A stretch of DNA of 54,428 bases from a virus: IMG/VR virus record IMGVR_UViG_3300047173_000017; one strand, written 5' to 3'. This document shows, piece after piece, positions 1-54,428 of the stretch. The translations under genes were made by a program, and so were the position numbers. The notes under the pieces were generated by a model. The model searched no databases. It was not told where the DNA came from and saw only the letters and a program-made list of their open reading frames with translations. Within the stretch, counting starts at the first letter, position 1. Each line of letters opens with the position of its first letter.

Positions 1-127
1 GCGCGGGCCGCATCCAACCGCTGCAATAGCTGGCGCTTCTCTAGCTCGTGGTATTCGGCTTGGCGGTCCATTGCCGCGCTTAGCGACATGGCATTGGCTT
101 TCCAGTCCGGCTCGCCGGTCGGCGCCA
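1..127. repeat. Terminal direct repeat, copy 1 (identical to 54302..54428); circular-closure overlap
   Basis: Read by eye: bases 1-127 (gcgcgggccgcatccaacc...ggtcggcgcca) recur exactly at 54302-54428. A length of 127 equals a common maximal assembler k-mer. Confidence 0.9.
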
Positions 128-148
128 GCTCGTCTTGGGTCGTGTCTG

Positions 149-358
149 TCATCGTTCTACCTCACCTTCTGGGACGCACCGCATGTGCGCGTCGAGTTTG
201 CGAACCGGCTCACCTTCGGCCGGGTGATTGAAAACGTAGTCGAGATTTTCCTTCGCGCGCTGGCACAAGGCCAGGGTCGCGAAGCGTTTTTGATTCAGCA
301 CCCAGACGCCGCTGGGGTCGTGCCAGGCGATCAACAGGACGAAGATAAGAGTGGTCAT
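149..358 (-). CDS. Hypothetical small protein (69 aa) with hydrophobic N-terminus
   Basis: ORF track. ATG at 358 lies 1 nt after the stop of the upstream gene (360-362). N-terminus is MTTLIFVLLIAW. Member of the co-oriented leftward operon. Confidence 0.55.
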   Translation of the reverse strand: MTTLIFVLLIAWHDPSGVWVLNQKRFATLALCQRAKENLDYVFNHPAEGEPVRKLDAHMRCVPEGEVER

Positions 359-359
359 G

Positions 360-605
360 TCAGCCGCGGACGGTGGTCAGTTCGACCCGGCCGTGCCAGG
401 CGTGGAGAGTCTGGACGCCGCCAAGCTCGACGTGCAAAAAATCCGCAATCTCTTCGTGGTACATGCCGACGGCGGCGCACTGGTGCACCGCGTCCTCGAT
501 CTTCTCGGCCATTATGAAATTCTCTGATTCAATCTGAAGGTCGTACTCGATCGCCTTGCCGTTGTTGACGCAGCGCGCTGCAAACCAGGTCCGGTAAAGG
601 TTCAT
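360..605 (-). CDS. Hypothetical protein (81 aa)
   Basis: ORF track. Its ATG (605-603) overlaps the TGA (604-602) of the upstream gene as ATGA. Non-repetitive composition. Confidence 0.6.
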   Translation of the reverse strand: MNLYRTWFAARCVNNGKAIEYDLQIESENFIMAEKIEDAVHQCAAVGMYHEEIADFLHVELGGVQTLHAWHGRVELTTVRG

Positions 606-1279
606 AGATCAAGGCTCCGTTGTGTGGCGTGTGGGGTCCAGGTCGTCGGGTTCTGAATCGAGTCGAGTGCTTCCGCGTTGCACGCGGCGCAACCCGTGTT
701 GCGCTTCCAGTTCTGCGCGAGGTTCGTGCTGTCCGCAGACGCCAGTGGCCACCGCTCGCCGGCCTGGCCGAGCATCCGCAGGCCGTGAATCCAGGGAAGC
801 CTGGCGTGGCGCTTCGATAGCGCATTGAACGCCTCGTCCATGCGCCGGCACCAGTCGTCGTTGCCGACCTGCCAAAATTCCGCGCTCGAGCCAAAGCAAA
901 CGCGAGGGAATTGATCGGCCAGTTCGAGCAGATAGTCGATGGGCAGGGACAGATGCCAGACCGGAGCGCCGAGGTTTCCGTAAGGCCACCGACTGACCAT
1001 CTGCCGCTGCTCGAAGGCGGACCCGCCGATCACGTCGGGGATGATCGCCCAGTGCGGGTGATGCAGGATCGGGTCGAGCCACTTGATGTAACCGGCTTCG
1101 TCGAATGGCGTGTGCTGAGTGAAGGCGCTGAAGGCGCCGCTGTCGAACATGATCGACGAGGCAATCAGCAGGCAGGTCCGAAGGTCGTCCGGCCTGGCGT
1201 AGCTGACACAGAAGTTCCGGCCGGCGAGGCGAATCAGCTGCTCGCGCGGGGTCAGCGGGGTGCCGTGGTAATGGATCAC
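602..1279 (-). CDS. tRNA-guanine-transglycosylase superfamily / DpdA-like protein (225 aa); function tentative
   Basis: GTG start at 1279. Motif IMFDSGAFSAF resembles the catalytic DSGGFQ loop of TGT-family enzymes, and a later SADSTNLAQNW follows. Size fits short phage DpdA proteins. Assignment from motif memory only. Confidence 0.6.
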   Translation of the reverse strand: MIHYHGTPLTPREQLIRLAGRNFCVSYARPDDLRTCLLIASSIMFDSGAFSAFTQHTPFDEAGYIKWLDPILHHPHWAIIPDVIGGSAFEQRQMVSRWPYGNLGAPVWHLSLPIDYLLELADQFPRVCFGSSAEFWQVGNDDWCRRMDEAFNALSKRHARLPWIHGLRMLGQAGERWPLASADSTNLAQNWKRNTGCAACNAEALDSIQNPTTWTPHATQRSLDL

Positions 1280-1306
1280 AGTGTCAGTCGTAGCAGTGGT
1301 CGAGGA

Positions 1307-1534
1307 TCATCGCGCGAGCATGTCAGGATCGGGCAGCACGGTGACGTCCAGGCCCAGTTTCTCGGCGAGCTCGAGGTCGCGTTCGGTCAGCGTCTTTACC
1401 GCGATGCGGCCGTCGGCCAGGCGCCGCTCGCCGCCGCCGCGCGCAAGCTCGGCGATGATGCGAGCTGGTTCGTTGAGCGGGTAGATTTTCTTCTGGCCGA
1501 ACACGTTTCGGTAGCAGACTTGCATTGAGATCAT
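1307..1534 (-). CDS. Hypothetical protein (75 aa)
   Basis: Internal ATG of ORF 1307..1879. ATG (1534-1532) overlaps the TGA (1533-1531) of the upstream gene. The upstream part of the long ORF is Arg/Pro-rich shadow sequence. Confidence 0.6.
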   Translation of the reverse strand: MISMQVCYRNVFGQKKIYPLNEPARIIAELARGGGERRLADGRIAVKTLTERDLELAEKLGLDVTVLPDPDMLAR

Positions 1535-2133
1535 GCTGTCACCCTGTTGGTTTTTGACAGTCGAGCGACGGCAATCAGCCAGTCGCGAAAAGGTATCGGG
1601 GTCGCGGCGCGCTCCGGTCGCGTGACTTCCGGGCGCCAGCCAGGCTCCCCTTTCTTCAGCCGACCGCCGCCATTGCGCCGGCCGGAGTTCGTTATCAGGT
1701 GGGTCGACGGGCCGATGCTCAACGGAATCACCGGCAAGTCGTTCGGCTCGACGCCGACGATGTAGATCCATGTCGGTTTGCGCGCGCGGTGGCCGACCCA
1801 GTTCTGATCTATCGGCATCGTCCAGCCACCGAAGCGGTCGCGCCCCTCGCCAGGCCGAGGCATGTTGCACGCCTTCCATAGCTTAGAAAACGCGGGATGC
1901 TCGAGCGCGCCGCCGCAGATGCGGACGCACGCGACGGCGTGGATCGCCAGGTCCTTCTCGGATTCCGGCGCGGTCGATAGGTGCGACATCGCGCCCCACA
2001 AGCGGCACGGCGGGTGCGCGACGACCGGATACCGGCCGTGGTAGTTCCTGGCGTCGCGCACCGCGTCCCACGGGTCGACGTCGGGCAGGCCGAAGTAGCA
2101 CCCGCCCGTGTTGACGTAGAGCGCAGCGATCAT
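1531..2133 (-). CDS. Miniature DNA C5-methyltransferase-like protein (200 aa); function tentative
   Basis: ATG 2133 overlaps the upstream stop (ATGA). Ordered motifs: LYVNTGG (I-like), DPWDAVRDARNY (II-like), HPPCRLWGAMS (IV-like PC), ALEHPAFS (VI, ENV-like), GHRARKPTWIYIVG (VIII, RxR-like), TRPERAATPIPFRDW (IX-like). Confidence 0.6.
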   Translation of the reverse strand: MIAALYVNTGGCYFGLPDVDPWDAVRDARNYHGRYPVVAHPPCRLWGAMSHLSTAPESEKDLAIHAVACVRICGGALEHPAFSKLWKACNMPRPGEGRDRFGGWTMPIDQNWVGHRARKPTWIYIVGVEPNDLPVIPLSIGPSTHLITNSGRRNGGGRLKKGEPGWRPEVTRPERAATPIPFRDWLIAVARLSKTNRVTA

Positions 2134-2321
2134 CGCGGCTGCAGTTCGTCGGACGTCCCGAGCGCGTCGAGCAGCCGCGCGAAGCGGTCCGAGCGGCCGA
2201 GGTCCTTGTACGGGACCAGGCCTCGAGCGGACCGCCAGACAAGCCAGCGGTGGTTGTCGCACCACACGATGACCTGCCACTGGCCCATGTGGATCTCGGA
2301 CGCTGCGCCGATGCTTACCAT
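2130..2321 (-). CDS. Hypothetical protein (63 aa)
   Basis: Internal ATG of ORF 2130..2615, overlapping the stop of the upstream gene by 7 nt. An alternative ATG lies at 2288. Confidence 0.5.
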   Translation of the reverse strand: MVSIGAASEIHMGQWQVIVWCDNHRWLVWRSARGLVPYKDLGRSDRFARLLDALGTSDELQPR

Positions 2322-2527
2322 GCTGCTGCGTCGAGGATCGCTTGCGCGAGCCTGGCGGCGTCCTGGCGGCGAACGAAGATGACGGCGCGCTGGCGGTGCT
2401 CGTTCGGCTGAACCCGGCCGCGCGTGACTTCCAGCTGGATGCACTCGGCCGTCGCCGGCATGGTCCTGATGCGCGTCGAGTCCGCGCTGAGCGCCGCGAT
2501 CTCGCGGCCGATGGTCACGGTCTGCAT
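2315..2527 (-). CDS. Hypothetical protein (70 aa)
   Basis: Internal ATG of ORF 2315..2707. TAATG overlap with the upstream gene at 2527-2529. Confidence 0.55.
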   Translation of the reverse strand: MQTVTIGREIAALSADSTRIRTMPATAECIQLEVTRGRVQPNEHRQRAVIFVRRQDAARLAQAILDAAAW

Positions 2528-2661
2528 TACTTGCCTCCGATGTGGATGGTTGGTGGGACGCCGTCGTCGGGGTCGCCCTGGTCGACGGTGATGGCGCCGG
2601 TCTGCAGGCCGGCAAGGACGAACGCGGCGCCGATCAGGGCGCAGATGAGGTAGCGGATCAT
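2527..2661 (-). CDS. Small hydrophobic protein (44 aa, MIRYLICALIGAAFVLAGL...)
   Basis: AGGAG sits 7 nt upstream of ATG 2661. ATGA overlap with the upstream micro-ORF. One signal-peptide or TM-like segment. Confidence 0.5.
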   Translation of the reverse strand: MIRYLICALIGAAFVLAGLQTGAITVDQGDPDDGVPPTIHIGGK

Positions 2662-2837
2662 TTGCCGGCTCCTGGTGCGTTGTGGGGCGCGGTGTAGTGG
2701 GCCGCATTCAGTGGCGCCGAGGGCGCGTTGCGGTTGACGTAGATCAGCGCGGCGCAATAGGCCAGCGTCACGATGATCGCGATAGCGGTCGACCGGCGGC
2801 TTCCGGTTTTGGGTACGCCGTAGCGGTCCTCGTTCAT
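2658..2837 (-). CDS. Small single-pass membrane protein (59 aa), not in the supplied ORF track
   Basis: Hand translation: MNEDRYGVPKTGSRRSTAIAIIVTLAYCAALIYVNRNAPSAPLNAAHYTAPHNAPGAGK. ATGA overlaps at both ends (2834-2837 and 2658-2661). Confidence 0.5.
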   Translation of the reverse strand: MNEDRYGVPKTGSRRSTAIAIIVTLAYCAALIYVNRNAPSAPLNAAHYTAPHNAPGAGK

Positions 2838-3004
2838 GGCCGCACCAGCCGGATGCGGCTGCAGTGCTGGCAGACGAAGGTCGGGATCGCGTCGCGCAGG
2901 TTCTTGCCGTCATCCATCCTGCCGCCGGCAAGCGACTTCGGCTGCGCGCACCGCGCGCACCGCAGCAGCAGGCCGCGGATCGAGCAAAGCGTTGGGGTCA
3001 TCAT
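2834..3004 (-). CDS. Small zinc-ribbon-like protein (56 aa), first gene of the leftward operon
   Basis: ATG ATG at 3004/3001 with GAGG 5 nt upstream. Cys pairs CARC and CQHC. Confidence 0.6.
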   Translation of the reverse strand: MMTPTLCSIRGLLLRCARCAQPKSLAGGRMDDGKNLRDAIPTFVCQHCSRIRLVRP

Positions 3005-3044
3005 TGTTGCCTCACTGGTTGTACTACTGGTTGCACCAGGGGTA

Positions 3045-3073
3045 AATGTATGCCCGCTTGCGCCGTTTGTCAA
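3045..3073 (-). promoter_or_regulatory. Candidate sigma70-type leftward early promoter
   Basis: On the minus strand: TTGACA (3073-3068), a 17-nt spacer, then TACATT (3050-3045). It lies about 40 nt upstream of the first leftward gene, in the only AT-rich gap between the divergent blocks. Confidence 0.4.
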
Positions 3074-3086
3074 ATTAATCTACAGT
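3058..3086 (+). promoter_or_regulatory. Weak candidate rightward early promoter
   Basis: TTGCGC (3058-3063), 17-nt spacer, TACAGT (3081-3086). This would give a nearly leaderless transcript for the ATG at 3093. Poor -35 match. Confidence 0.2.
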
Positions 3087-3092
3087 ATTTTC

Positions 3093-3299
3093 ATGGATGA
3101 CCTGCCGACGCTTTCTCCGGACGACCTGGTGCGCCGCTGCGGTGGCCGGCGTCGCGACGTGATTGCCGTGTTTGCCAGTTTCGACGAGCCTCTGACGCGC
3201 GCGGCGCTGTCGCACTGGTTCCGTAAGACCGGCGCCGTGCCGGCGCAGCGGGTGCGGCAGCTGCGGCGCAACCGGCCGGACATCCTCGAGGGGCTGTAA
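3093..3299 (+). CDS. Cro/YdaS-like helix-turn-helix regulator (68 aa)
   Basis: Internal ATG of ORF 2682..3299 directly after the AT-rich gap. The segment TRAALSHWFRKTGAVPAQRVRQL resembles the YdaS/Cro HTH. First rightward gene. Confidence 0.6.
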   Translation: MDDLPTLSPDDLVRRCGGRRRDVIAVFASFDEPLTRAALSHWFRKTGAVPAQRVRQLRRNRPDILEGL

Positions 3300-3496
3300 T
3301 GGGCGACGTCGGCGAGCTATTCAACGCGGTGCGCGAGCACCGGCGCGACATGCGCGCCAAGCACGGCGTGCCGTGTCCGGACTGCCAGGCGAAGCTGCCG
3401 CGCGCCAACCCGTCGATCCTGCTGCCAGGCCAGCGGTGCCGGATTCACGGCTACCGGGACCCGCGGCCTTTCGTTCACCTGGGGGATCTCAAATGA
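3299..3496 (+). CDS. Hypothetical Cys-containing protein (65 aa)
   Basis: ORF track. TAATG overlap at the start, ATGA overlap at the end. CPDC motif. Confidence 0.55.
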   Translation: MGDVGELFNAVREHRRDMRAKHGVPCPDCQAKLPRANPSILLPGQRCRIHGYRDPRPFVHLGDLK

Positions 3497-3972
3497 GTTT
3501 CGAGGACCTGACGATCCGCGAGCAGCTGCAGGCCACCGGCCTGTCCGAGCTCAAGCTGGTGCCGACCTACCTGCACGACGACGAGGACCCGCCGCGCATC
3601 GACCTGGGGTTTTGGTCGTGCGTGTTCAAGTTCCCGAACGATCGAGCGATCCAGGTCCAGATGGAAGCCCCGGTTCACCCGATGTCGCCGCGCGACGTCA
3701 TGGATGCGGTCGGCCATATTCACCATTCAGTCGTCGAGCAGGTTCACCACGGCTGGATGGGCAAGGACGGCCGGTTCGAGCCTGCGATGCCCGACATGCT
3801 GTGGCACGTCAACAATGGGCGGGTGGTCGAGTGGCTAGATCGGCATATCCGGATCTGGCTGGTGGCGCGCATCGAGGGCGCTCGCGCGCTGGCCGAGCGG
3901 CGCAGCCTCGAGGACGCGCTGGCCGAGGCCGAGTGGCGTTCGGATACCGGCGTGAAGCCGACCCTGCAGTGA
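3493..3972 (+). CDS. Hypothetical protein (159 aa)
   Basis: Internal ATG (MSFEDLTIRE...) of ORF 3373..3972, coupled to the upstream stop by ATGA. Confidence 0.7.
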   Translation: MSFEDLTIREQLQATGLSELKLVPTYLHDDEDPPRIDLGFWSCVFKFPNDRAIQVQMEAPVHPMSPRDVMDAVGHIHHSVVEQVHHGWMGKDGRFEPAMPDMLWHVNNGRVVEWLDRHIRIWLVARIEGARALAERRSLEDALAEAEWRSDTGVKPTLQ

Positions 3973-4102
3973 CTACAATGCCGGCGGTCCAGCGCAATTG
4001 CGCGCGCCGACGTGGCGCTGGCCGCGGCCCATTCATCGTGGCCGTCCGAGCCTCACCGGATGGCGCGCGCCTGGCGCGCATCGGCGTAACCAGGCTCCAA
4101 TA

Positions 4103-4696
4103 ATGCCGCGCGCGTCCCGAGTCGACCCGCGTCGCGAGACGTTCTGCCGGCTGTACCTGAAGTATTTTGGTCTGCCGGGTGCGGGCAAGCGCGCTGCCCA
4201 AGAGGCGAAGTACAGCCTGAAGAACACGGGCATCGCCGGCTACCTGCTCGCTCAGCCCTGGATTCAGAACCGAATCAACCAGCTCATGCTCGAGGGGTTC
4301 GCGCGCGATGCGATGACCCCGCAGGAGATCGTCGCGCGCATCGCCAGGCTGGCCAGGCGTGACGTCCGGGCGCTGTTCACCGCGCAGGGCGACCATATCC
4401 TGCCGCACCAGCTGGACCCGGACATCGCCGGCGCGATCGTCGGCCTGGACACAGAGCTCAACTTCGGCGCCGACGGCGCGCCACCGACCGCGGTGCGGAA
4501 GTACCGGCTGGTCAATCCATTGCCTGCGCTTCGGGCGCTGGCCGAGATCCAGGGGATGCTCGAGCCGGCATACGAGGGGCGAGGACAAGGCCTGGGCGAT
4601 CGGCTGCAGCGCGCTCGCGCCAGGATCAGGGACGCGCAGCGCGATGCTGTCGCGATCGAGGGAACCTCCAAGGAAAAGCCAGATGGAAAGCATTGA
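4103..4696 (+). CDS. terS: Terminase small subunit (Terminase_2-like)
   Basis: Starts at MPRASRVD. Pattern RRETFCRLYL...AAQEAKYS...GYLLAQPWIQNRINQLM...TPQEIVARIARLARRDVRALF...LPALRALAEIQGML follows the conserved layout of PF03592-type small terminases. Confidence 0.75.
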   Translation: MPRASRVDPRRETFCRLYLKYFGLPGAGKRAAQEAKYSLKNTGIAGYLLAQPWIQNRINQLMLEGFARDAMTPQEIVARIARLARRDVRALFTAQGDHILPHQLDPDIAGAIVGLDTELNFGADGAPPTAVRKYRLVNPLPALRALAEIQGMLEPAYEGRGQGLGDRLQRARARIRDAQRDAVAIEGTSKEKPDGKH

Positions 4697-4973
4697 AGCG
4701 GTCCAGCCTGCCAACGCGCTCGACCACGAAGAGCGCGACCGCGCCTTCACCGCCAGGCTGCGCGAGCTCATCAAGGCGCATACCGGCCGCGACGACCATT
4801 TCGTTCTGCTCTACTGGCAACCGATGCGCCACGGTCATCGGTACGTGGCCAGCTGCGACCCGCGAGAGCTCAAGGCGCTGGCGACCTGGATCTACAGCGA
4901 TCTCGCGCCCGAGCTCGAGGCGAAGATCCGGATTGGCGGCGTGATGCTGGTGCCTGACGGGACGGTGCGATGA
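4683..4973 (+). CDS. Hypothetical protein (96 aa)
   Basis: Internal ATG (MESIEAV...) of ORF 4359..4973. 14-nt overlap with terS. Confidence 0.6.
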   Translation: MESIEAVQPANALDHEERDRAFTARLRELIKAHTGRDDHFVLLYWQPMRHGHRYVASCDPRELKALATWIYSDLAPELEAKIRIGGVMLVPDGTVR

Positions 4974-5059
4974 ACGCGCTGCTGTGGCTGGTGATGATCG
5001 TTGGCGTGTTCGGCTTCATTGCTTACATTCTCGACAAGATTCTGGGGCCACCGCGATGA
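4970..5059 (+). CDS. Micro-ORF, 29-aa hydrophobic peptide (MNALLWLVMIVGVFGFIAYILDKILGPPR), not in the ORF track
   Basis: Hand translation. ATGA overlaps with both neighbours (4970-4973 and 5056-5059). Confidence 0.4.
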   Translation: MNALLWLVMIVGVFGFIAYILDKILGPPR

Positions 5060-5346
5060 CCTACGAGGTCATTCGCACGCGCGACGGCGTGATGGGCCTG
5101 GTCGACACGACCGGCAAGAATTACCCCCGCTGCACCTGTGGCGGGTTATCGACGCATGGTTGCGACTGGAATGGGTGCGAGGCGCAGCTGTGCGATTTCT
5201 GCCGGGTGCCGTTCGGCCCGGACCTGGACCTGTGTCCGCGGCATGAGCGGATTCGGGTGGAGCTATCCAATGAAGGGCAAACCGAGGGAACCAACGATGG
5301 AACGAGGGATTCTGGGCGCGGTGCTGGGCCTGGGGATGCGGCCTAG
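5056..5346 (+). CDS. Cys-rich (zinc-binding-like) small protein (96 aa)
   Basis: Internal ATG (MTYEVIRTRDG...). Cys-rich segment: CTCGGLSTHGCDWNGCEAQLCDFC...CPRH. Confidence 0.6.
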   Translation: MTYEVIRTRDGVMGLVDTTGKNYPRCTCGGLSTHGCDWNGCEAQLCDFCRVPFGPDLDLCPRHERIRVELSNEGQTEGTNDGTRDSGRGAGPGDAA

Positions 5347-5743
5347 CCTGCTGAAGCTACCGCCAGGCAATGTCGGGACGCTGCTGTGGCAGCTGCAGTC
5401 GGACGAGGTCGGGGTGCGGATCGTCGACCAGCTGTGGGAGTTCAGTGGCCAGCTTGATGAGCTGGTGCTTGACGGGGTCGTCGCCGGGCCGAATCGGGTG
5501 GACGAGGTCTGGACGATGGACGGGAATTACAATCTCGTCGACCGCTCGTTCGTGGGCGCCGGCTTCACGGTGCGGCGGTACGGCAAGGATTTCGTGCCGC
5601 GGTTCAGCCCGGCCGATCCTAAGATCCTCATCCTGCCGGCCTGCACGCGCGCCTCGATCGTCGTCAACAGTGGCCGCGCGATCCGGTTCGACATCAATGT
5701 GCGCGGGATTCAGGAACACGACTTCAGGGGGATGCGCGCATGA
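5297..5743 (+). CDS. Hypothetical protein (148 aa); start ambiguous
   Basis: ORF 5138..5743. Candidate starts at 5270 (GGAG upstream), 5297 (GAGGGA upstream) and 5336. All overlap the previous gene. Confidence 0.55.
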   Translation: MERGILGAVLGLGMRPSLLKLPPGNVGTLLWQLQSDEVGVRIVDQLWEFSGQLDELVLDGVVAGPNRVDEVWTMDGNYNLVDRSFVGAGFTVRRYGKDFVPRFSPADPKILILPACTRASIVVNSGRAIRFDINVRGIQEHDFRGMRA

Positions 5744-5937
5744 TGCCGATTCCTCTGTCCGACCTGGTCTGCGGCATCTGCAACCGCCGGTTCGAGTTCG
5801 GGGAAGAGGCGATCGTGCGCCCGGTCCTGGTTCGCACCGGCCGTGAATCCCGCCCGTGGGTCACGGAATTGACCCCGCAAGCCGACATCGTGCACTCGGA
5901 CTGCATGGGGGTGCCTCTTGCCAACATCGGGCCGTAG
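5740..5937 (+). CDS. Hypothetical small protein (65 aa) with CGIC...HSDC
   Basis: ORF track. ATGA overlap at the start. Confidence 0.55.
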   Translation: MMPIPLSDLVCGICNRRFEFGEEAIVRPVLVRTGRESRPWVTELTPQADIVHSDCMGVPLANIGP

Positions 5938-6388
5938 TCGAATCCTGCTGTCCGACCTGCCGCTCGCCGCACGGGACCAGGCACTCAGCCGCGCCGGCGC
6001 CGTGCGCGAGGCCCGGAAAATCCCGCAGCCGGTCAACCGCACGCTCGAGACGAAGTTCCGGCTGGCCTGCGTCGCGCACGGTCTGCCGGCGCCGGCCGAG
6101 CAATTCCAGGTCCACGAAAGCCGGAAGTGGCAGTGGGATTTCGCCTGGCCGTGGTTGCGGATCTGCGTGGATCTGGACGGCGGCATCTACACCGGCGGGG
6201 CGCATAGCCGCGGTGCGCGAATCGAGAAGGACCACGAAAAGCGCAACGCGGCGGCTGCTGACGGCTGGACGGTTCTTCTGTTCGGCCCGAAAGCCGTTAC
6301 CAGCGCCTCGTTCGTCGAGGTCCTGCGCCTGGCAATGACCATGCGCCGCGAAGGCCGGTTCGCTACTGGTCCAGCCAGGGGTCCCTAA
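5918..6388 (+). CDS. Vsr/DUF559-like (restriction-endonuclease-fold) nuclease
   Basis: TTG start. WQWDFAWPWLRICVDLDGGIYTGGAHSRGARIEKDHEKRNAAAADGWTVLLF matches the D...D/E-x-K core layout of DUF559/Vsr-type endonucleases. Confidence 0.65.
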   Translation: MPTSGRSRILLSDLPLAARDQALSRAGAVREARKIPQPVNRTLETKFRLACVAHGLPAPAEQFQVHESRKWQWDFAWPWLRICVDLDGGIYTGGAHSRGARIEKDHEKRNAAAADGWTVLLFGPKAVTSASFVEVLRLAMTMRREGRFATGPARGP

Positions 6389-6642
6389 TGCACTGGTCTG
6401 ACCTTAAGCCGGGGATAGTCTGGATCGCAACGATCAACAATCGGCGTCGTATCCTGCACTTCGGCGGGGGCTGGCGCGGTCGCGTCTCATACGTGACCGA
6501 AGGCGGCGCCATCCGCTACTGCAACGGCCGAACGTTCGTTCGGTGGATTGCCGAATGGCAGGCGATTCCAGCCACGCCAGCGCCAGGCAGGAAGCCAGCG
6601 GCACCAGGTTCGCGACGTACCAAAGCACCTTCAGCCAAGTGA
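6388..6642 (+). CDS. Hypothetical protein (84 aa)
   Basis: ORF track. TAATG overlap with the upstream gene. Confidence 0.6.
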   Translation: MHWSDLKPGIVWIATINNRRRILHFGGGWRGRVSYVTEGGAIRYCNGRTFVRWIAEWQAIPATPAPGRKPAAPGSRRTKAPSAK

Positions 6643-6734
6643 CCATCCACGTCTCCCGTTTGCCGGGTATCGTGGGCCATATAACGCAATGACGCTATGA
6701 TCCTTCAGGACTAGCGCAACCGAGGATTCAGAGA

Positions 6735-7586
6735 ATGGGAGTTCCCTATTTCCCGCTGTACCCCACGGATTTCCTGGCCGACGTAGGCCACCTTGGCAAC
6801 ACCGAGCTCGGCATCTACTGGCGCCTTCTGCTCGTCTACTACCGCGACCAGCGCGCCCTGCCGGCCGAGCCTGATCGAATCCGCCGCATCGCGATGTGCT
6901 TCACGCCCGAGGAAAACAAGACCCTCGAGCACGTCTTGCTCGAGTTCTTCGTCCTTGCCACAGACGACGAGGGCCGGCGCAGCTGGCGCCACAAGCGGGC
7001 CGACATCGAGATCGAAAAGGCCAGGTCGAAGATCAAGGCAATGCAGGACTCGGCAGTGCGTACCAATGCGATGCGGTGGGGGTCGAAGGGCGAATCGGTT
7101 GCCGAATCGCTACCCGAATCGCTACCCGAATCGCCTAGCGATCGCTTAGCGAGTCGCTTAGCGGTCAATAACCAGAACCAGATACAGAATCAAAAGAAGA
7201 AAGAGTCTTTACCCGAGCAGCACCTATCTAAAGCCAGTAGTGATGTATCAACTATTGGGCGATCCAAAGCCGGATCGCCCGTGGTTTACCCGCCGGGGTT
7301 CACTGCGTTTTGGGAGGCATACCCTCGAAAGCGCGGCAAGGACGACGCGTTCAAGGCGTGGCGCGTGCTCAAGCCCACGCCGGCGCTGCTCGAGCAGATG
7401 GTCGCCGCCATTGCCGTGCAGCGCGCTGGACCCGAGTGGACGCGCGAGGGTGGTCAATTCATCCCTCACCCCGCGACCTGGTTGCGTGCTGGCCGATGGA
7501 AGGACGAGGTCGAGACGGTTGCCGATGATGGCGAGCGCCTGGCGGCTATGATTCAATCCGATCCACGCTTTTCAACCCCGACGTGA
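6735..7586 (+). CDS. DUF1376 (YdaU-like) replication initiation/primosome-recruiting protein
   Basis: N-terminus MGVPYFPLYPTDFLADVGHLGNTELGIYWRLLLVYY is the hallmark DUF1376 opening. GAGGA lies 8 nt upstream. The central linker is encoded by iterons plus AT-rich DNA. Confidence 0.75.
   Translation: MGVPYFPLYPTDFLADVGHLGNTELGIYWRLLLVYYRDQRALPAEPDRIRRIAMCFTPEENKTLEHVLLEFFVLATDDEGRRSWRHKRADIEIEKARSKIKAMQDSAVRTNAMRWGSKGESVAESLPESLPESPSDRLASRLAVNNQNQIQNQKKKESLPEQHLSKASSDVSTIGRSKAGSPVVYPPGFTAFWEAYPRKRGKDDAFKAWRVLKPTPALLEQMVAAIAVQRAGPEWTREGGQFIPHPATWLRAGRWKDEVETVADDGERLAAMIQSDPRFSTPT
7091..7162. repeat. Six tandem 12-bp iteron-like units inside the DUF1376 gene (candidate origin iterons)
   Basis: Units: cgaatcggttgc / cgaatcgctacc / cgaatcgctacc / cgaatcgcctag / cgatcgcttagc / gagtcgcttagc, read directly. 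12-bp phase. Confidence 0.6.
7163..7262. other. AT-rich stretch adjoining the iterons (candidate DNA-unwinding element)
   Basis: My hand count gives about 42 G+C in 100 nt (ggtcaataaccagaaccagatacagaatcaaaagaagaaagag...), against a visibly >60% G+C background. Confidence 0.5.
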
Positions 7587-7592
7587 GGCACC

Positions 7593-8060
7593 GTGAACCC
7601 TTCCGACCTATCCATTTTCAAGGCCAGGCTGACCGAGCTTGCCGAGGCGTTGCAGGCCAAGCCACCGACCGACATCGCCATGAAAGCCTGGTTCCTGGCG
7701 CTGCGCGACATTCCCCTCACGACGTGCGTCGATGCGCTCGACGAGTGGACCTGCACGAAGCCGCGCTACCCGTCGCCTTCGGACGTGCGCCAGCTCGCGT
7801 CGGCGAAGATCAGCGCCCGGATCGAGGAACAGGCCAAGGTCGATCGGTCCAGCGCCGGGACGCTTGAGTCGGTGATGCGCACGGCGCCGGCGCGGCTGCG
7901 CGATCTCAGCCCAGAGGACCAGGCGGTTTGCCGCAAGGCGATCGAGGCGTGCTGGCTGGCGCTCAAGCGAGCGCCGCTGGTCAAGCGCGTACCGCTTTCC
8001 GATGACGAGGTCGAGGCTCGGATGGAGCGCGAGGCGATCCAGGCCGAAGGTAGGGCATGA
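7593..8060 (+). CDS. Hypothetical replication-module protein (155 aa)
   Basis: GTG start with GAGG 4 nt upstream. Sits directly after the initiator gene. A helicase-loader-type role is only positional inference. Confidence 0.6.
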   Translation: MNPSDLSIFKARLTELAEALQAKPPTDIAMKAWFLALRDIPLTTCVDALDEWTCTKPRYPSPSDVRQLASAKISARIEEQAKVDRSSAGTLESVMRTAPARLRDLSPEDQAVCRKAIEACWLALKRAPLVKRVPLSDDEVEARMEREAIQAEGRA

Positions 8061-18464: not shown

Positions 18465-18472
18465 GGCTCCCC

Positions 18473-19846
18473 ATGAAGCGCATCCTCGCACTACTCCTGC
18501 TCTTGCCGATGCTGGCGTGGGGGCAGAGCTATCCGTCGCCGCGCGTAAAGTCGTTGCTGGCAACGGATGGAACGACGCTGATTACTGCGCCCGCATCCGA
18601 CACCACGACGGTGGCGGCAGGCAATTTGTCACTGAATGCCTATACCAGCATCGGCTCGCCTCCAATCGGCACCGGCATGGCGATGGTGTCTATCGGCTAC
18701 GGAGCAATGCAGTACGTCACTACGCATTCATGCTCGTACTCGCTTTTTGATATTTACTCGGTGGCAATTGGAGAGTATTCACAACAATACGCCGCTGGGT
18801 GTGAGAATGTCTCAATTGGCATTAATACTTTAGAAAATGCGTCGTTTACTGGTTCATTCAATATTGCCCTTGGCAATGATGCTCTCGGCCAAGTAACGAG
18901 CGGAAACGAAAATATCGGAATCGGACACGGCGCGTGCGGTGGGGGAGTCAATACCCTTGCGGTGACGGGAAGTTTCAATGTCTGCGATGGTAGTGGCGCT
19001 GGGGACTATTTGAACGGCGCCGCCAATTACAATCTTTTTGAGGGCTATCTCGCGGGAGCGGGAGCGGCGGCCAATCCGAACAGCGGCTCACTCAATGTAG
19101 CTGAGGGGGCGTTTGCGCTTCAGAACATCAGTACGTCGAGCAGAAATGTCGCTATTGGTTATGGTGCGATGACAGGCTCTGCGTCTGCGCCATTGACCAG
19201 CGGATTTGCTTACAACACCGCGGTAGGATACGATGCCGGTTTAGTAATGCAGGGCGCCGCTAGCGCCAATACAGTAGTTGGTGCAGAAGCCGGCTATGCG
19301 ATTACAACCGCAAATGCTGATGTTATGGTCGGCGTTCAGGCCGGCGTGGCGGCCACGAGTTCAGGTAATACGCTAGTTGGTGCCTATGCCGGGAACAAAA
19401 TAGTTGGGGGTGGCAATAACACCGTGTTCGGTGCTGCTGTTGCGACTGCCACTCTTGTGAGCGGCAGCAACAATATTCTAATTGGCACATCTTCTGGCGT
19501 AGATACTGTTGCATCATCGACGTCGAACGAAATAAATATAGGCGGAGCACTGATTGGATTTTCAATTGCGCCGACGCTGACTAGCGGATGGGGAACAAGC
19601 CCGACGGCGCCGGCAGAAACGTCAACTTTCAGTTTCCATGCAACCGTTGGCGCAACCGGATCGCCAAGCACGACCGGCGTCATTGGCCTGCCGACCGCGC
19701 CGACGTCATGGAACTGCCGCGCCAATGACCTAACAAGCAACGTGACCGCGCGCATGACGGCACAGAGCGCGTCGAGTGTGACGTTCACATGGTCGAGCGC
19801 TCCGAGCAATTCGGACGTTATCTGGTTTGCCTGCAACGCGAACTAG
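18473..19846 (+). CDS. Adhesin/tail-fibre-like repeat protein (457 aa) with Sec-type signal peptide; low-GC gene
   Basis: N-terminus MKRILALLLLLPMLAWG/QSYP (n-h-c regions, AxG site). Repeats of the type NVSIGINTL, NIALGNDAL, NVAIGYGAM, NTAVGYDAG, NTVVGAEAG and NTLVGAYAG resemble YadA-head/fibre repeats. The DNA is visibly AT-richer than the flanks. Confidence 0.7.
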   Translation: MKRILALLLLLPMLAWGQSYPSPRVKSLLATDGTTLITAPASDTTTVAAGNLSLNAYTSIGSPPIGTGMAMVSIGYGAMQYVTTHSCSYSLFDIYSVAIGEYSQQYAAGCENVSIGINTLENASFTGSFNIALGNDALGQVTSGNENIGIGHGACGGGVNTLAVTGSFNVCDGSGAGDYLNGAANYNLFEGYLAGAGAAANPNSGSLNVAEGAFALQNISTSSRNVAIGYGAMTGSASAPLTSGFAYNTAVGYDAGLVMQGAASANTVVGAEAGYAITTANADVMVGVQAGVAATSSGNTLVGAYAGNKIVGGGNNTVFGAAVATATLVSGSNNILIGTSSGVDTVASSTSNEINIGGALIGFSIAPTLTSGWGTSPTAPAETSTFSFHATVGATGSPSTTGVIGLPTAPTSWNCRANDLTSNVTARMTAQSASSVTFTWSSAPSNSDVIWFACNAN

Positions 19847-20127: not shown

Positions 20128-20403
20128 ATGTTCTACGACGAGCTCGGTTACTGCGAAACGGCGCTGCCGCCGACGGCAGTGACCGCGCTCGCCACGCGCG
20201 ACGACTGGATCGAGCCGCCGCGCGTGATTCCTTCGGCGCGCTGCACGAAGCACCAGGTGCGCCCCACCGCGTTCCCTCTCTGTCTCCCCACTCCCGCGCG
20301 GTGGGTTTCGACCTGGTGGCAGCGCGCCCCTCCCGCTGACGTTGCCCATACCGTATTCCTTTCAGGAAGGGCGCCGCGTGCGCCCTTTTCGTTGAATGGC
20401 TGA
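20128..20403 (+). CDS. Doubtful ORF (91 aa) spanning a structured region
   Basis: AGGA 8 nt upstream. The first ~55 codons are GC3-rich, but the 3' half runs through a long hairpin and a terminator-like stem. Confidence 0.3.
   Translation: MFYDELGYCETALPPTAVTALATRDDWIEPPRVIPSARCTKHQVRPTAFPLCLPTPARWVSTWWQRAPPADVAHTVFLSGRAPRAPFSLNG
20251..20318 (+). other. Extended imperfect hairpin with a 25-nt pyrimidine-rich loop (possible structured RNA)
   Basis: Outer stem caccaggt (20251-20258) pairs with acctggtg (20311-20318). Inner stem cccaccgcg (20263-20271) pairs with cgcggtggg (20297-20305). Loop: ttccctctctgtctccccactcccg. Confidence 0.3.
20367..20394 (+). terminator. Rho-independent terminator candidate
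   Basis: aagggcgc-cgcgt-gcgccctt (8-bp stem, 5-nt loop) running into ttttcgtt. It ends 2 nt before ATG 20396. Confidence 0.5.
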
Positions 20404-52455: not shown

Positions 52456-52782
52456 ATGCCGGCCTATCCCAAATCGCCGCACTACGAAAGCCGGCCGCTG
52501 CGCCAGCTGATCGCGACCCTCGAGTGCGTGCGCTGCGGGATCGAGGGGTACACGCAGTGCGCGCACATGGGTGGTGTGGCGCAAGGTAAGGGGCTGGGCT
52601 ACAAAGTCAGCGACTCGCGTTGTGCCGCGCTGTGCGGGCCGCACCCGAACGCCGAGGGGGAGATCGTCGTCGGGTGCCACGCCGAGGTCGGGGAGGGGCA
52701 CGGCGACCACGGGCTCGAGTGGATCGCCCGCACCTTCATCCTGCTGGTCGAGCGCGGGTTGCTGGTGGTCAAGCGGCGCTAG
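52456..52782 (+). CDS. YbcO/DUF1364-like zinc nuclease-type protein (108 aa), opposite strand to its neighbours
   Basis: LECVRCGIEGYTQCAHMGGV...GKGLGYKVSDSRCAALCGPH...GCH parallels the Cys/His pattern of lambdoid YbcO. GC3-rich codons. The long minus-strand ORF here is Arg/Gly shadow. Confidence 0.65.
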   Translation: MPAYPKSPHYESRPLRQLIATLECVRCGIEGYTQCAHMGGVAQGKGLGYKVSDSRCAALCGPHPNAEGEIVVGCHAEVGEGHGDHGLEWIARTFILLVERGLLVVKRR

Positions 52783-53234
52783 CCGACCCAGCGCCATTTC
52801 CCACCGACCAGGTCGTCGCCCACCGGCAGCACCATCCGGTCCGGCCGGCTGTGCCACCAGCGCGCCGGCCCACCGCTGTCCTGCTTGTCGAGCGTGAAGC
52901 CGGCCGCACGCAAGCTGGCGCCGCCTTCCTCCGGCAGCGTGTAGGTGTAGACCGGCCCGTGGCCAAGCGCCATCGCCGCGCGCCTGGCCGCGCCGTAGAG
53001 CATTGAGCACGCATTGCGCGTGCCGTCGGTGCAGAGGCGGGTGATCTCGACGGCGCGGCCGTCGTCCAGGTGCGGGGCGACCGGCCGGCCGACGATTGCC
53101 ACGCCGACCAGGCGCCCGTCAAGCTCGACGCCGACGCTGAATTTATGCCCGGCCGGCACGCGGTTGTGGCGGTGGTGCTGCCGGACAAAATCGCGGGCCT
53201 GCGCCAGCGTGACGGGTGCTAGCTTCAGGCTCAA
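52779..53234 (-). CDS. GNAT-fold acyltransferase-like protein (151 aa)
   Basis: TTG start in a TTGA overlap. ARDFVRQHHRHNRVPAGHKFSVGVELDGRLVGVAIVGRPVAPHLDDGRAVEITRLCTDGTRNACSMLYGAARRAA is a recurrent phage GNAT-like pattern. Confidence 0.7.
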   Translation of the reverse strand: MSLKLAPVTLAQARDFVRQHHRHNRVPAGHKFSVGVELDGRLVGVAIVGRPVAPHLDDGRAVEITRLCTDGTRNACSMLYGAARRAAMALGHGPVYTYTLPEEGGASLRAAGFTLDKQDSGGPARWWHSRPDRMVLPVGDDLVGGKWRWVG

Positions 53235-53908
53235 GCGTCGATCGTCCAGTTGAGCTCGAGCCTGGATTCCGGGTTCGTCCGATGCAGGTAGGCCAGCTGC
53301 GCGACGATGTTCGCGCGGTGGTGGCCGACGGCGTCGGCGTAGGCCGGACTGCGGCTGTAATTGCCGGCGTGCGACGTCCACTCGTATCCAACGAACGGTA
53401 GCTTCACCGCGCCGCCGCGCAGCGCCGCCGCGGCTTTGAGGAACCAATCCGCCCCCCACGGCAGAGACTTCGCGAACATGGCGTCATCGTCCAGCAGCGC
53501 GTCGGCCCGGATCAGCGCGAAGTGGTGGATCGCGCCGCGGTTGTAGACGCACTCGATCAGCTGTGAAGGTCCTTCGTGGCGGGTAAGGAACCCTCGCCTC
53601 TCGTCGACGTGCTCTTCGTGCGTGAACGCGACCGCGGCTGTCGTCGCCTCGAGCGCGCGGATGCAGCGCGCCACGGTGTTGTCGAGGGTCAGCATGTCGT
53701 CGTCGTCGACGAACCCGAAACAGTCGCCCCAATGAACATGCTCGAGGCAGCGTTGCGTCGCCTCCCCTTCGGTCGCGCCGTAGACGATCGTGTGCGCGAG
53801 CTGGTATCCCGGCGGCATCTTCTGCCGGCCGACCGAGTTGCAAGCGTTTACGAAAGCGGAGGCGCGGGTCAGGTGCGCTGGATTGTGGCGCGTAAAAATT
53901 CGGATCAT
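53231..53908 (-). CDS. GT-A (family-2-like) glycosyltransferase (225 aa)
   Basis: ATGA-coupled start (MIRIFTRHNP...). FGFVDDDDML provides the DxD motif in the usual position after an N-terminal Rossmann-like strand. Confidence 0.65.
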   Translation of the reverse strand: MIRIFTRHNPAHLTRASAFVNACNSVGRQKMPPGYQLAHTIVYGATEGEATQRCLEHVHWGDCFGFVDDDDMLTLDNTVARCIRALEATTAAVAFTHEEHVDERRGFLTRHEGPSQLIECVYNRGAIHHFALIRADALLDDDAMFAKSLPWGADWFLKAAAALRGGAVKLPFVGYEWTSHAGNYSRSPAYADAVGHHRANIVAQLAYLHRTNPESRLELNWTIDA

Positions 53909-54390
53909 CTGGATTGCTCCTTGAGGTAGGCGTCTACGCAGTGGTTCCATCCGTCAACGAACATGCGCTGCTCTATCGAGTCCAGGGGGTATGTCCGCAT
54001 CTTTGCCGGCACCTCGACGGGGCTGCCCCCCGAATGCGGGTGAAACCACCTGAACTTCCGCCCGCAACCACAACGCCCGTGATATTCAACCGCATCGATG
54101 CTGCGGCCCGATCCGCGGCAGGTTGGGCAAGCGTCTACGCCACCAGGCACTGCTGGTGCGGCGTAGATCAGATCGAGGCATTTCAAGTAGTCGGCATATT
54201 CTGAGTCGGCAAGCGTGTTGCGAAGATAGTTGTCGACTGCGTCATAAGCCGCACTACGCGCAGGATCATCCTTCGGCTCCGGCGCTCCCTTGGCGAGCAG
54301 GGCGCGGGCCGCATCCAACCGCTGCAATAGCTGGCGCTTCTCTAGCTCGTGGTATTCGGCTTGGCGGTCCATTGCCGCGCTTAGCGACAT
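53905..54390 (-). CDS. Hypothetical zinc-ribbon protein (161 aa)
   Basis: ORF track. CPTCRGSG...CGCGRKF. Its 5' end lies inside the 127-bp terminal repeat. Confidence 0.65.
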   Translation of the reverse strand: MSLSAAMDRQAEYHELEKRQLLQRLDAARALLAKGAPEPKDDPARSAAYDAVDNYLRNTLADSEYADYLKCLDLIYAAPAVPGGVDACPTCRGSGRSIDAVEYHGRCGCGRKFRWFHPHSGGSPVEVPAKMRTYPLDSIEQRMFVDGWNHCVDAYLKEQSR

Positions 54391-54428
54391 GGCATTGGCT
54401 TTCCAGTCCGGCTCGCCGGTCGGCGCCA
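54302..54428. repeat. Terminal direct repeat, copy 2 (identical to 1..127)
   Basis: See copy 1. Confidence 0.9.

Follow-up and report, generated by a model that had tools for sequence, protein, structure and literature searches.

The phage contig analysed here (IMG/VR record IMGVR_UViG_3300047173_000017, 54,428 nucleotides, the whole of which is referred to below as the window) encodes a divergent member of the phage DpdA family, constantly paired in its lineage with a tiny neighbour, an 81-aa protein (p81) that resembles a cut-down QueF. A phage carrying DpdA and no pathway for 7-deazaguanine precursors is a situation already described, to which the gene of the window adds a divergent member; the pairing is new and less expected than the missing pathway. 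We regard it as fairly probable that this compact DpdA exchanges guanine in the phage DNA for a 7-deazaguanine derived from the host. The coordinates of the features discussed are collected in Table 1.

Table 1. Features of the window related to dpdA and its surroundings (positions are those of the window).
Feature	Position	Strand	Remarks
Terminal overlap	1..127	.	identical to 54302-54428, marks circular contig
p81 (phrog_37496)	360..605	-	81 aa; 4-nt overlap of its start with the dpdA stop; small QueF-like T-fold candidate
dpdA-like gene	602..1279	-	225 aa, GTG start; predicted compact DNA guanine transglycosylase, 'singleton' phage DpdA subgroup
Segment SADSTNLAQNW (aa 181-191)	707..739	-	S181-A-D183-S184 on CAjan S204-C-D206-S207; D183 codon, nt 731-733
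D82 (in IPDVI)	1034..1036	-	predicted base-recognition Asp; predicted partner H109, nt 953-955
Loop IMFDSGAFSAF (aa 43-53)	1121..1153	-	exact alignment with CAjan D63-S-G-A-F67 loop; D46 codon, nt 1142-1144
Mom-like / XF1762-family ORF	52779..53459	-	NCBIfam NF045478, E 4e-51; phrog_1384 'Mom-like DNA modification protein', E 1.5e-36

The first and the last 127 nt of the contig match exactly, and because its ends are identical the assembly is considered circular and complete, with a unique length of 54,301 bp; the original prediction had also taken the genome to be complete. The phage is new, high-GC and podovirus-like: the identity of its TerL does not exceed 45%, megablast of nt 1-8000 against phages gave no match, and the nearest genomic relatives of the contig reside in Noviherbaspirillum and Ideonella. 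Neither a preQ1 riboswitch nor other Rfam families nor tRNA genes were found on the contig. The stretch 18465-19826 holds a low-GC tail-spike-like ORF and is not a non-coding gap.

The dpdA-like ORF is a real gene, found on the minus strand exactly as predicted and with both of the motifs quoted at that time in place. Its GC3 of 0.82 contrasts with a GC2 of 0.49, and 7221 homologues of its product were retrieved at E ≤ 1e-5 from a set of 5.8 billion proteins, besides 608 representative clusters at 50% identity; identity to any deposited phage protein does not exceed 56%. The GTG start is supported by the homologues, which begin with the same N-terminus, MIHYHGTP, at the same position.

Judging by its sequence, the product is a member of the phage DpdA family. 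It matches PHROG 887 (E 1.1e-39) and, in tblastn, the DpdA proteins of Pantoea phage vB_PagS_MED16 (gp38; 40% identity, E 9e-33) and Salmonella phage 7-11 (31%, E 1e-19), and 78 diverse family members (30-54% identity) were aligned by hhalign with the family of the experimentally validated CAjan DpdA1 over 174 columns (98.7%, E 2e-16). One of the relatives is a QueD-DpdA fusion. The DpdA/TGT-like identity, originally proposed on the grounds of the two motifs, is thus supported on the same grounds, as the DSGAF and SADS loops align with those of CAjan DpdA1, and by the comparison with a DpdA profile that had been suggested along with it. As for PF01702, also suggested for comparison, no match was obtained even at E ≤ 10, nor did the rest of Pfam, NCBIfam or the PADLOC DpdA models give one at this threshold; a Pfam scan of the 78 diverse relatives revealed no PF01702 (0/78), and when the PDB sequences were searched, neither the single protein nor two family profiles gave anything above noise. 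These misses of curated models say little either way, since the validated CAjan DpdA1 itself lacks a Pfam or PDB-search match and reaches the PADLOC DpdA model only at E 1.3e-3. The hhalign comparison of the 78-member family with the single E. coli Tgt sequence yielded nothing; the link to TGT rests on a chain leading from E. coli Tgt, which matches the PADLOC DpdA model at 2e-8, through that model and CAjan DpdA1 to this family, as well as on published HHpred results, in which the MED16 protein matched the TGT structure 2ASH at 99.2% (PMC8306585).

D46, H109, H165 and D183/S184 are placed by hhalign exactly on invariant residues of CAjan DpdA1. The DSGAF loop aligns column by column with FLDSGAFSA of CAjan DpdA1, with D46 and F50 exactly on D63 and F67, and H109 aligns with H132. 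D82 falls three alignment columns from CAjan D105, and owing to this offset the equivalence of the two positions is one that we infer. D82 and H109 form the sole invariant columns in the 78 relatives; D46, D183 and S184 are kept in at least 90% of them, and SADS is invariant in the close clade. By analogy with Asp95 and Phe99 of bacterial DpdA, D46 is predicted to be the general acid/base and F50 a base-stacking gate, while D183 would correspond to Asp256 (Asp280 of Z. mobilis TGT) and be the covalent nucleophile; the base-recognition residues of bacterial DpdA are Asp130/His181 (PMC10164549). The structural Zn2+ site of TGT (C-x-C-x2-C...H after the last barrel strand) is not conserved in the protein of the window, in which only C197-x2-C200 occurs downstream of D183. 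This pair is kept in the close clade, not in the 78-member diverse set, and is located in a region of low pLDDT outside the hhalign match.

The AF2 model of the protein (pLDDT 85.5, pTM 0.84) is confident and, with its alternating strands and helices, has the form of a TGT-like (beta/alpha) barrel. BFVD gave twenty matches with E ≤ 1e-3, and of those that bear a name almost all are phage queuine tRNA-ribosyltransferases; for phage DpdAs the E-values lie between 2e-7 and 6e-4. As for the comparison of a structural model with TGT and DpdA, envisaged in the original prediction, the best Foldseek match in the PDB, although a modest one, is the TGT-family Cap10 (9NTN; prob 0.99, E 2.4e-3, TMq 0.52), but canonical TGT and bacterial DpdA structures (7UI4) are absent from the top 50 PDB matches. 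Most of the Foldseek PDB matches are unrelated TIM barrels (epimerases, transaldolases, DHDPS).

As to the precursor pathway, no ORF resembling FolE, QueD, QueE or QueC had been noticed originally, and this was confirmed: these enzymes, as well as QueF (which that list did not include), QueA and YhhQ, were found on the complete contig neither by Pfam on the called genes nor by six-frame phmmer. The latter search (phmmer --max; queries: E. coli and CAjan FolE, QueD, QueE, QueC, QueF, QueA and three YhhQ), which covered all stop-to-stop frames and the circular junction, produced nothing but noise, all at E > 0.06. By its gene content the phage belongs to the 'DpdA-only' class (group 3), possessing DpdA without FolE, QueD, QueE, QueC, ArcS, Gat-QueC and QueF, with the provisos that ArcS had no query of its own and that p81 is perhaps a remote QueF relative. 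Such phages are not unusual: the DpdA-only group is the largest one, comprising 76 of the 182 phages in Hutinet et al. (2019). The conclusion of the original prediction, namely use of host preQ0 or insertion of another base, has already been drawn for this class (PMC6884629; PMC8306585). Phages 7-11 and MED16, with DpdA only, carry dADG at about 0.02% (PMC6884629) and 0.13% of G, respectively, and the mark of MED16 provides little restriction protection in vitro (PMC8306585). Mycobacteriophage Orion encodes DpdA and has no 7-deazaguanine in its DNA, its host being devoid of preQ0 (PMC6884629).

The gene was initially described as an orphan. This is correct with regard to the precursor pathway and not strictly so with regard to the neighbourhood, as the gene overlaps a conserved partner with QueF-like motifs and belongs to a run of minus-strand genes that continues over the circular junction and includes a Mom-like ORF. 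The latter matches Pfam Mom at E 1.3e-5, under the curated cut-off; its conserved part is aa 77-205, and its true start is probably internal. Among 82 loci of relatives, 11 have a homologue of this ORF no more than 10 kb away from DpdA. A 200-aa protein encoded upstream (phrog_12600) was considered as a C5-methyltransferase core (HPPC and Q..R.R-like motifs), a candidate backed by no tool. A new result concerning the 82 loci is that none of them contains FolE, QueE, QueC or QueF within 10 kb, and that in 30 of them a precursor transporter of the YhhQ/Vut_1 type abuts dpdA; QueD adjoins it in two. Beside dpdA in this lineage one repeatedly meets either an importer of the YhhQ type or p81, and such linkage to a transporter, QueD or a QueF-like gene is hard to explain without the use of a 7-deazaguanine substrate.

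The p81 and dpdA genes are translationally coupled, and for this lineage of DpdA p81 is a conserved and obligate companion. It adjoins DpdA in 17 plus 4 of the 82 loci, and all the 80 IMG/VR viral contigs retrieved by p81 alone contain DpdA, abutting in 79 of them. The two genes stay adjacent in either order: p81 is downstream of DpdA in the window and in locus L003 and upstream of it in RHph_X2_30 and the Pseudomonas-type loci.

The likeness of p81 to QueF suggests that it probably binds or processes a 7-deazaguanine nitrile. The similarity is moderate (hhalign E 2.2e-4, 45%; with a richer profile E 2e-5, 77%), and none of 400 shuffled decoys reached the real score. C12 of p81 aligns with the catalytic, thioimide-forming Cys of QueF, and H50-E51, in (Y/F)HE, with the FHE motif; C12 and E51 are invariant among the relatives. 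In terms of the QueF motif F-x-S-x-C-P-x-T-G-Q-P-D, the p81 of the window has CV for CP and lacks the Asp of QPD, which is missing in most members and present in divergent ones; a divergent member keeps CPxDDRPD and matches a QueF HMM. The NADPH-binding 'QueF motif', E(S/L)K(S/L)hK(L/Y)(Y/F/W), is not found in p81. At the aligned segment the consensus has VEHIKTATAL and the protein of the window AEKIEDAVHQ, with the lysines missing, and the absence of the motif argues against reduction by p81. The protein is half the length of QueF/QueF-L or less, shorter than any characterised one, and has no match in a Pfam scan. A protein search of a large database returned only p81 itself and an IMG/VR scan with the single protein gave nothing useful, although IMG/VR contains at least 187 relatives of p81; the single-sequence AF2 model (pLDDT 50.7) was unusable and its Foldseek matches meaningless.

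MED16 and 7-11 belong to the same family at the BLAST level and to the same PHROG, and, like the window, have DpdA without FolE, QueD, QueE, QueC or an amidotransferase, the substrate being presumably made by the host. Unlike these enterobacterial proteins, the DpdA of the window has an extra C-terminal 35 aa (with C197/C200), to which they do not align, and is paired with p81. Since no p81 homologue was detected beside the dpdA genes of MED16 and 7-11, p81 cannot explain their dADG, and this explanation was rejected. In DpdA1 of Escherichia phages CAjan/9g, a validated preQ0 DNA transglycosylase, the D-S-G-A-F loop recurs together with the His and the S-x-D-S nucleophile motif; however, the CAjan protein is 306 aa long, modifies about 32% of G (PMC6884629) and is clustered with FolE, QueD, QueE, QueC and a YhhQ-like gene, whereas the 225-aa protein of the window has no such cluster. 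Like bacterial DpdA (Salmonella Montevideo, 7UI4), it is predicted to employ double-displacement chemistry with three aspartates, a gate Phe and a His (PMC10164549). The bacterial enzyme, in contrast, needs the DpdB ATPase, has a zinc site and four insertions, including the 128-residue Ins8, and acts with DpdC to produce dADG, while the window contains no DpdB, no DpdC and none of these insertions, and its protein finds no counterpart in the PADLOC DpdA model. As for TGT (PF01702), the predicted beta/alpha-barrel superfamily and the catalytic logic are common to both, but the protein of the window is about 150 residues shorter, lacks the zinc subdomain and is expected to act on DNA. Cap10 of type IV CBASS, its best structural match in the PDB (11% identity), is a host defence protein, which together with the QueC-like Cap9 conjugates 7-deazaguanine to a protein N-terminus (10.1101/2025.04.06.647259).

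Homology, conserved active-site residues, the fold, the missing pathway and the pairing of the genes are shown by the results above; what follows on the DNA guanine-exchange activity, the base involved, the extent of modification and the protection that it would give is inferred. After replication, the DpdA of the window would flip out particular guanines and cleave the glycosidic bond, with Asp183 as the covalent nucleophile and Asp46 as the general acid/base; Asp82 and His109 would read the edge of the base, Phe50 would stack on it, and the bond would then be re-formed with a 7-deazaguanine base. Since the genome lacks FolE, QueD, QueE, QueC and a YhhQ importer, this base, most probably preQ0, would have to come from the queuosine pathway of the host. 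By analogy with 7-11 and MED16, one would expect a dPreQ0- or dADG-type mark of low stoichiometry, specific for a sequence motif and directed against host nucleases. We also propose, tentatively, that DpdA and p81, the latter as a QueF-like T-fold protein reduced to about 80 aa, may constitute an undescribed two-gene module, in which the invariant Cys would capture the nitrile of host preQ0, with subsequent hand-over to DpdA or conversion, free or in DNA, to an amide, amidine or amine.

An active DNA transglycosylase whose final base is not preQ0 seems to us rather unlikely. According to this explanation the QueF-like p81 converts host preQ0, either free or in DNA, so that DpdA and p81 form a two-gene pathway; this pathway could yield preQ1 (by reduction), G+, an amidine (as with archaeal QueF-L), or the amide ADG (by hydrolysis of a thioimide). 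The order-independent tie of p81 to DpdA and the placing of Cys12 on the thioimide-forming Cys, at a profile score unattained by the shuffles, are in its favour, and so is the match of the divergent CPxDDRPD member to a QueF HMM; the similarity to QueF is, however, moderate and leaves no trace in Pfam, and the p81 of the window itself has neither the QPD Asp nor the CP. Reduction is disfavoured by the missing NADPH-binding motif, as is the explanation in general by a length below that of any characterised QueF/QueF-L and by the unusable AF2 model. The occurrence of dADG rather than dPreQ0 in the DpdA-only phages 7-11 and MED16 would agree with a final base other than preQ0, yet it is precisely beside the DpdA genes of these phages that no p81 was detected.

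Less probable still is that the homologue does not modify phage DNA in nature, whether because the host has no precursor, as in the case of Orion, or because it acts on another substrate (host DNA, tRNA) or is a plain glycosylase. Besides Orion, whose DNA is unmodified in spite of its DpdA, one could refer to the very low modification in 7-11 and MED16 (0.02-0.13% of G), to the protein of the window having neither a zinc subdomain nor the large insertions seen in bacterial DpdA, and to the host hint being confined to the nearest genomic relatives in Noviherbaspirillum and Ideonella. Against this, most Proteobacteria make preQ0, the predicted catalytic residues are strongly conserved across the 608 clusters, and the linkage to a precursor transporter, QueD or a QueF-like gene is repeated. 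Finally, an enzyme with an ordinary TIM barrel and no relation to TGT/DpdA, its DSGAF likeness having arisen by chance, could account for the failure of the Pfam, NCBIfam, PADLOC and PDB profile searches and for the many unrelated TIM barrels among the Foldseek PDB matches, but it is effectively refuted by the hhalign comparison, in which the catalytic motifs fall on those of validated DpdA1, and also disagrees with the PHROG 887 assignment, the phage DpdAs in BFVD, the QueD fusion, the YhhQ neighbours and the HHpred match of the MED16 protein to 2ASH; we give it practically no credence. Exchange of guanine for a host-derived 7-deazaguanine is the reading that we retain as the most probable.

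Phages use 7-deazaguanine marks in their DNA to withstand restriction enzymes and, in vitro, also Cas9. The source and the identity of the base in DpdA-only phages are a question posed by Hutinet et al. (2019) and Šimoliūnas et al. (2021), to which the window contributes a divergent DpdA from a new phage and a lineage with the four-gene pathway in none of 82 loci. If the two-gene module proposed above is true, phages without the pathway could still control the chemistry of their modification by means of some 900 nt, and the module would be a candidate for the dADG-type step in phages devoid of DpdC.

The gene put forward in the original prediction, an orphan relative of DNA (DpdA) and tRNA (TGT) guanine transglycosylases, is present on the minus strand and encodes a protein of 225 aa from a GTG start; both motifs quoted for it occur, IMFDSGAFSAF at aa 43-53 and SADSTNLAQNW at aa 181-191. 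Its codon-position GC (GC3 0.82 vs GC2 0.49) follows the pattern of the window's real genes, and the start codon is supported by the N-terminus MIHYHGTP, which the homologues share. A collection of 5.8 billion proteins contains 7221 homologues at E<=1e-5, forming 608 clusters at 50% identity. The window (65.7% GC) carries an exact terminal duplication of 127 nt, typical of an assembly overlap of the k-mer type; since its ends are identical, the contig is circular and complete, as had been claimed. Megablast with nt 1-8000 found no close deposited phage, and with terminases of Pseudomonas podoviruses the large terminase shares no more than 45% identity.

The DpdA/TGT-like nature of the protein is supported by its placement in phrog_887, annotated as 'queuine tRNA-ribosyltransferase' (E 1.1e-39), and by a family-against-family comparison of its relatives with a profile built for the experimentally validated DpdA1 of Escherichia phage CAjan (98.7% probability, E 2e-16, 174 columns). 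By tblastn it matched 103 phage records, including Rhizobium phage RHph_X2_30 (56%), Pantoea phage MED16 (40%, E 9e-33), Salmonella phages 7-11 (31%, E 1e-19), SEN1 and SW9, and phage SfI. Pfam, the source of the TGT profile PF01702, and NCBIfam gave no match even at E<=10, and neither did the PADLOC DpdA models. These negatives are not evidence against DpdA membership, because the validated CAjan enzyme scores poorly as well: it has neither a Pfam domain nor a PDB profile match, and the PADLOC bacterial DpdA model recognizes it only at E 1.3e-3, as compared with 2e-8 for E. coli Tgt. The curated models show, rather, that the family studied here is more distant from TGT than DpdA1 is. As conservation of the TGT zinc site was not found in the family, the protein is classed as a phage DpdA and not as a member of PF01702.

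Across 78 aligned relatives of diverse sequence (30-54% identity), D82 and H109 are the only invariant columns; 90% or more of the sequences keep D46, D183, S184, H5, G6, H165 and R168. D46-S-G-A-F50 is aligned on D63-S-G-A-F67 of CAjan DpdA1, H109 on H132, H165 on H187, and S181-A-D183-S184 on S204-C-D206-S207; D82 is offset by three columns from D105 in the profile alignment and is probably its equivalent. The structural study of a bacterial DpdA (PMC10164549) assigns roles to these positions, with Asp95 as general acid/base, Phe99 as gate, Asp130 and His181 as readers of the base, and Asp256 as nucleophile. The model obtained from AlphaFold2 with 57 homologues is confident and alternates beta and alpha elements (pLDDT 85.5, pTM 0.84). 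In the PDB it is matched best by type IV CBASS Cap10 (E 2.4e-3, prob 0.99, TMq 0.52), an enzyme of the tRNA-transglycosylase family according to its depositors; the other PDB matches are generic TIM barrels. Among predicted viral structures there were 20 matches at E<=1e-3, the named ones being nearly all phage queuine tRNA-ribosyltransferases.

Pfam analysis of all gene calls revealed the small terminase, DUF1376, lysozyme, SU10-type portal and adaptor, ART-PolyVal, KTSC, RecT and a weak Mom match, and no domains of the queuosine or folate pathways. Because gene calls could overlook ORFs (the low-GC ORF of 457 aa escaped the GC3-based calling), all 990 stop-to-stop segments of the window, including the circular junction, were searched with all filters off, the queries being E. 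coli and CAjan FolE, QueD, QueE, QueC, QueF, QueA and Tgt and three YhhQ proteins; every match had E > 0.06. Both searches uphold the claim that no ORF for FolE, QueD, QueE or QueC is present. In PHROG scans, the early genes yielded nothing beyond replication proteins and others without a known function, and no tRNA or Rfam family, hence no preQ1 riboswitch, was found in the window.

An orphan dpdA of this kind is not unusual and belongs to a known category. Of the 182 viruses sorted by Hutinet et al. (2019; PMC6884629), the largest group comprises 76 phages in which DpdA is encoded without any homologue of the proteins for G+ or preQ0 biosynthesis, and dependence on host preQ0 or on uptake was proposed for them. 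In the same work, the DpdA-only phage 7-11 had dADG at ~0.02% of G, and Orion had none, which fits a host without the pathway. MED16, which encodes dpdA alone, has dADG at ~0.13% of G, and this hardly affected the restriction enzymes tried (PMC8306585). The DpdA proteins of both 7-11 and MED16 are related to the window protein at the BLAST level.

We also searched, with the same query panel, up to 10 kb on each side of dpdA relatives at 82 loci, 75 of them in bacterial genomes, mostly prophages (Noviherbaspirillum, Ideonella, Rhizobiales, Methylobacterium, Solirubrobacterales, Pseudomonas, Cupriavidus), and seven from phages or metagenomes. FolE, QueE, QueC and QueF were found at none of the 82 within these limits, and QueD adjoins the dpdA relative at two. 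The YhhQ/Vut_1 (DUF165) transporter of 7-deazaguanine precursors, absent from the window, directly abuts it at 30. Hutinet et al. (2019) found YhhQ to be correlated with none of the phage groups; in this lineage such adjacency is frequent. The representative search also retrieved two fusions to a DpdA-like domain, one with QueD (protein P0163, 335 aa; PTPS, E 1e-24) and one with a Dam-type N6-adenine methyltransferase (P0208, 421 aa; E 9e-62). Independently of the fold, the subfamily is connected with 7-deazaguanine chemistry through the transporter, through QueD and through the fusions; these links also indicate a salvage lifestyle. Within this lineage, DpdA tends to be located in DNA-modification gene clusters. 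In Pseudomonas phage Epa33, the pair of DpdA and a homologue of p81, its 81-aa partner in the window, is directly followed by a 696-aa C-5 cytosine DNA methylase, and an N6_N4 methyltransferase is located immediately upstream at two of the transporter-bearing loci (L005 and L014).

Homologues of p81 directly adjoin the dpdA relative at 17 of the 82 loci, and an HMM adds four. A linkage test independent of DpdA, in which IMG/VR was searched with peptide patterns from p81 alone, yielded 187 contigs encoding a p81 relative; all 80 retained loci, which are fairly close relatives and hence not independent events, contain a DpdA-family gene, abutting in 79 (gap -9 to +6 nt). The adjacency persists despite altered gene order: p81 is downstream of dpdA in the window and at locus L003, and upstream in RHph_X2_30, Epa33 and Pseudomonas-type loci. 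No homologue adjoins dpdA in MED16, 7-11, SEN1, SfI or Vibrio phage D105, so p81 does not account for the dADG of the phages examined.

The p81 family has invariant residues (N2, Y4, C12, E34, E51, H71, V74) and a pattern, F-x3-C-P ... (Y/F/W)-H-E ... H-x-G-V-x-I-E-T, reminiscent of QueF. Comparison by hhalign with nine aligned QueF modules from phages and E. coli gave E 2.2e-4 (45%), placing Cys12 on the thioimide-forming Cys and YHE on FHE; none of 400 column-shuffled decoys reached the real score (28.7 vs a decoy maximum of 22.2). Addition of five divergent members raised the match up to 77% (E 2e-5), and one divergent member keeps CPVDDRPD and matches a QueF HMM at 14.5 bits. Against the relationship count the lack of any Pfam match, the absent NADPH-binding motif, the missing QPD aspartate in the window p81 and its very short length, and the unusable structure model lends no fold support. 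On balance, we somewhat favor a QueF-like T-fold for p81; a nitrile-processing function is less likely than not.

Coordinates of the features discussed
Feature	Record	Position	Strand	Remarks
dpdA	window	602-1279	-	225 aa
p81	window	360-605	-	phrog_37496; start overlaps dpdA stop by 4 nt
75-aa protein	window	1307-1534	-	upstream of dpdA; no function from any tool
200-aa protein	window	1531-2133	-	upstream of dpdA; phrog_12600, E 6e-73, unknown function
Mom-like/XF1762-family ORF	window	52779-53459	-	NCBIfam E 4e-51; phrog_1384
457-aa ORF	window	18473-19846	+	phrog_4636, E 2e-14
843-aa protein	window	20396-22927	+	acidic, Trp-rich repeats
396-aa protein	window	30955-32145	+	acidic, Trp-rich repeats in C-terminal part
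3438-aa ORF	window	35873-46189	+	ART-PolyVal, Pfam E 1.6e-8, aa 2366-2489
Terminal duplication	window	1-127 = 54302-54428		exact
YhhQ/Vut_1 transporter	L005	10678-11196
YhhQ/Vut_1 transporter	L014	11333-11848
YhhQ/Vut_1 transporter	L001	4985-5515
p81 homologue, DpdA, C-5 methylase	L095 (Epa33)	2756-5830

The minus-strand gene run of dpdA, which spans the circular junction, also carries recombination genes (RecT and an exonuclease) and the Mom-like gene, whose Arg-rich N-terminal extension is probably not translated; the presence of a Mom-like gene at 11 of the 82 loci suggests a second DNA-modification activity. Neither the 200-aa nor the 75-aa gene turned up at other DpdA loci that were examined. 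The HPPC and Q..G.RAR motifs of the 200-aa protein are somewhat suggestive of a C5-methyltransferase core, which no tool supported. Elsewhere in the window, a low-GC island (50-55%) holds the 457-aa ORF, which is tail-spike-like and was probably acquired horizontally; it has repeats rich in Gly/Ala/Ser, and its N-terminus looks like a signal peptide. The single 3438-aa ORF, with its ADP-ribosyltransferase domain, is reminiscent of the very large 'polyvalent' proteins that some phages inject. Long acidic, Trp-rich runs, e.g., DVDWDWSEDQADE and DDPWPWRDDEGAPDDQPEWQD, recur in two proteins (843 and 396 aa) without a family match.

We consider it probable that the dpdA protein is a post-replicative DNA guanine transglycosylase, in which D183 would serve as the nucleophile and D46 as the acid/base, and which would place preQ0 made by the host, or a base closely derived from it, at specific sites with low stoichiometry. 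The analysis shows the homology, the conservation of the residues, the fold, the lack of the pathway and the pairing of the genes; the enzymatic activity, which base is inserted and a protective role, if any, are inferred. The finding of an orphan dpdA is correct, but of modest interest, since the category is already known; the parts that deserve experiment are the conserved pair of DpdA and a mini-QueF-like protein and the frequent pairing with YhhQ.
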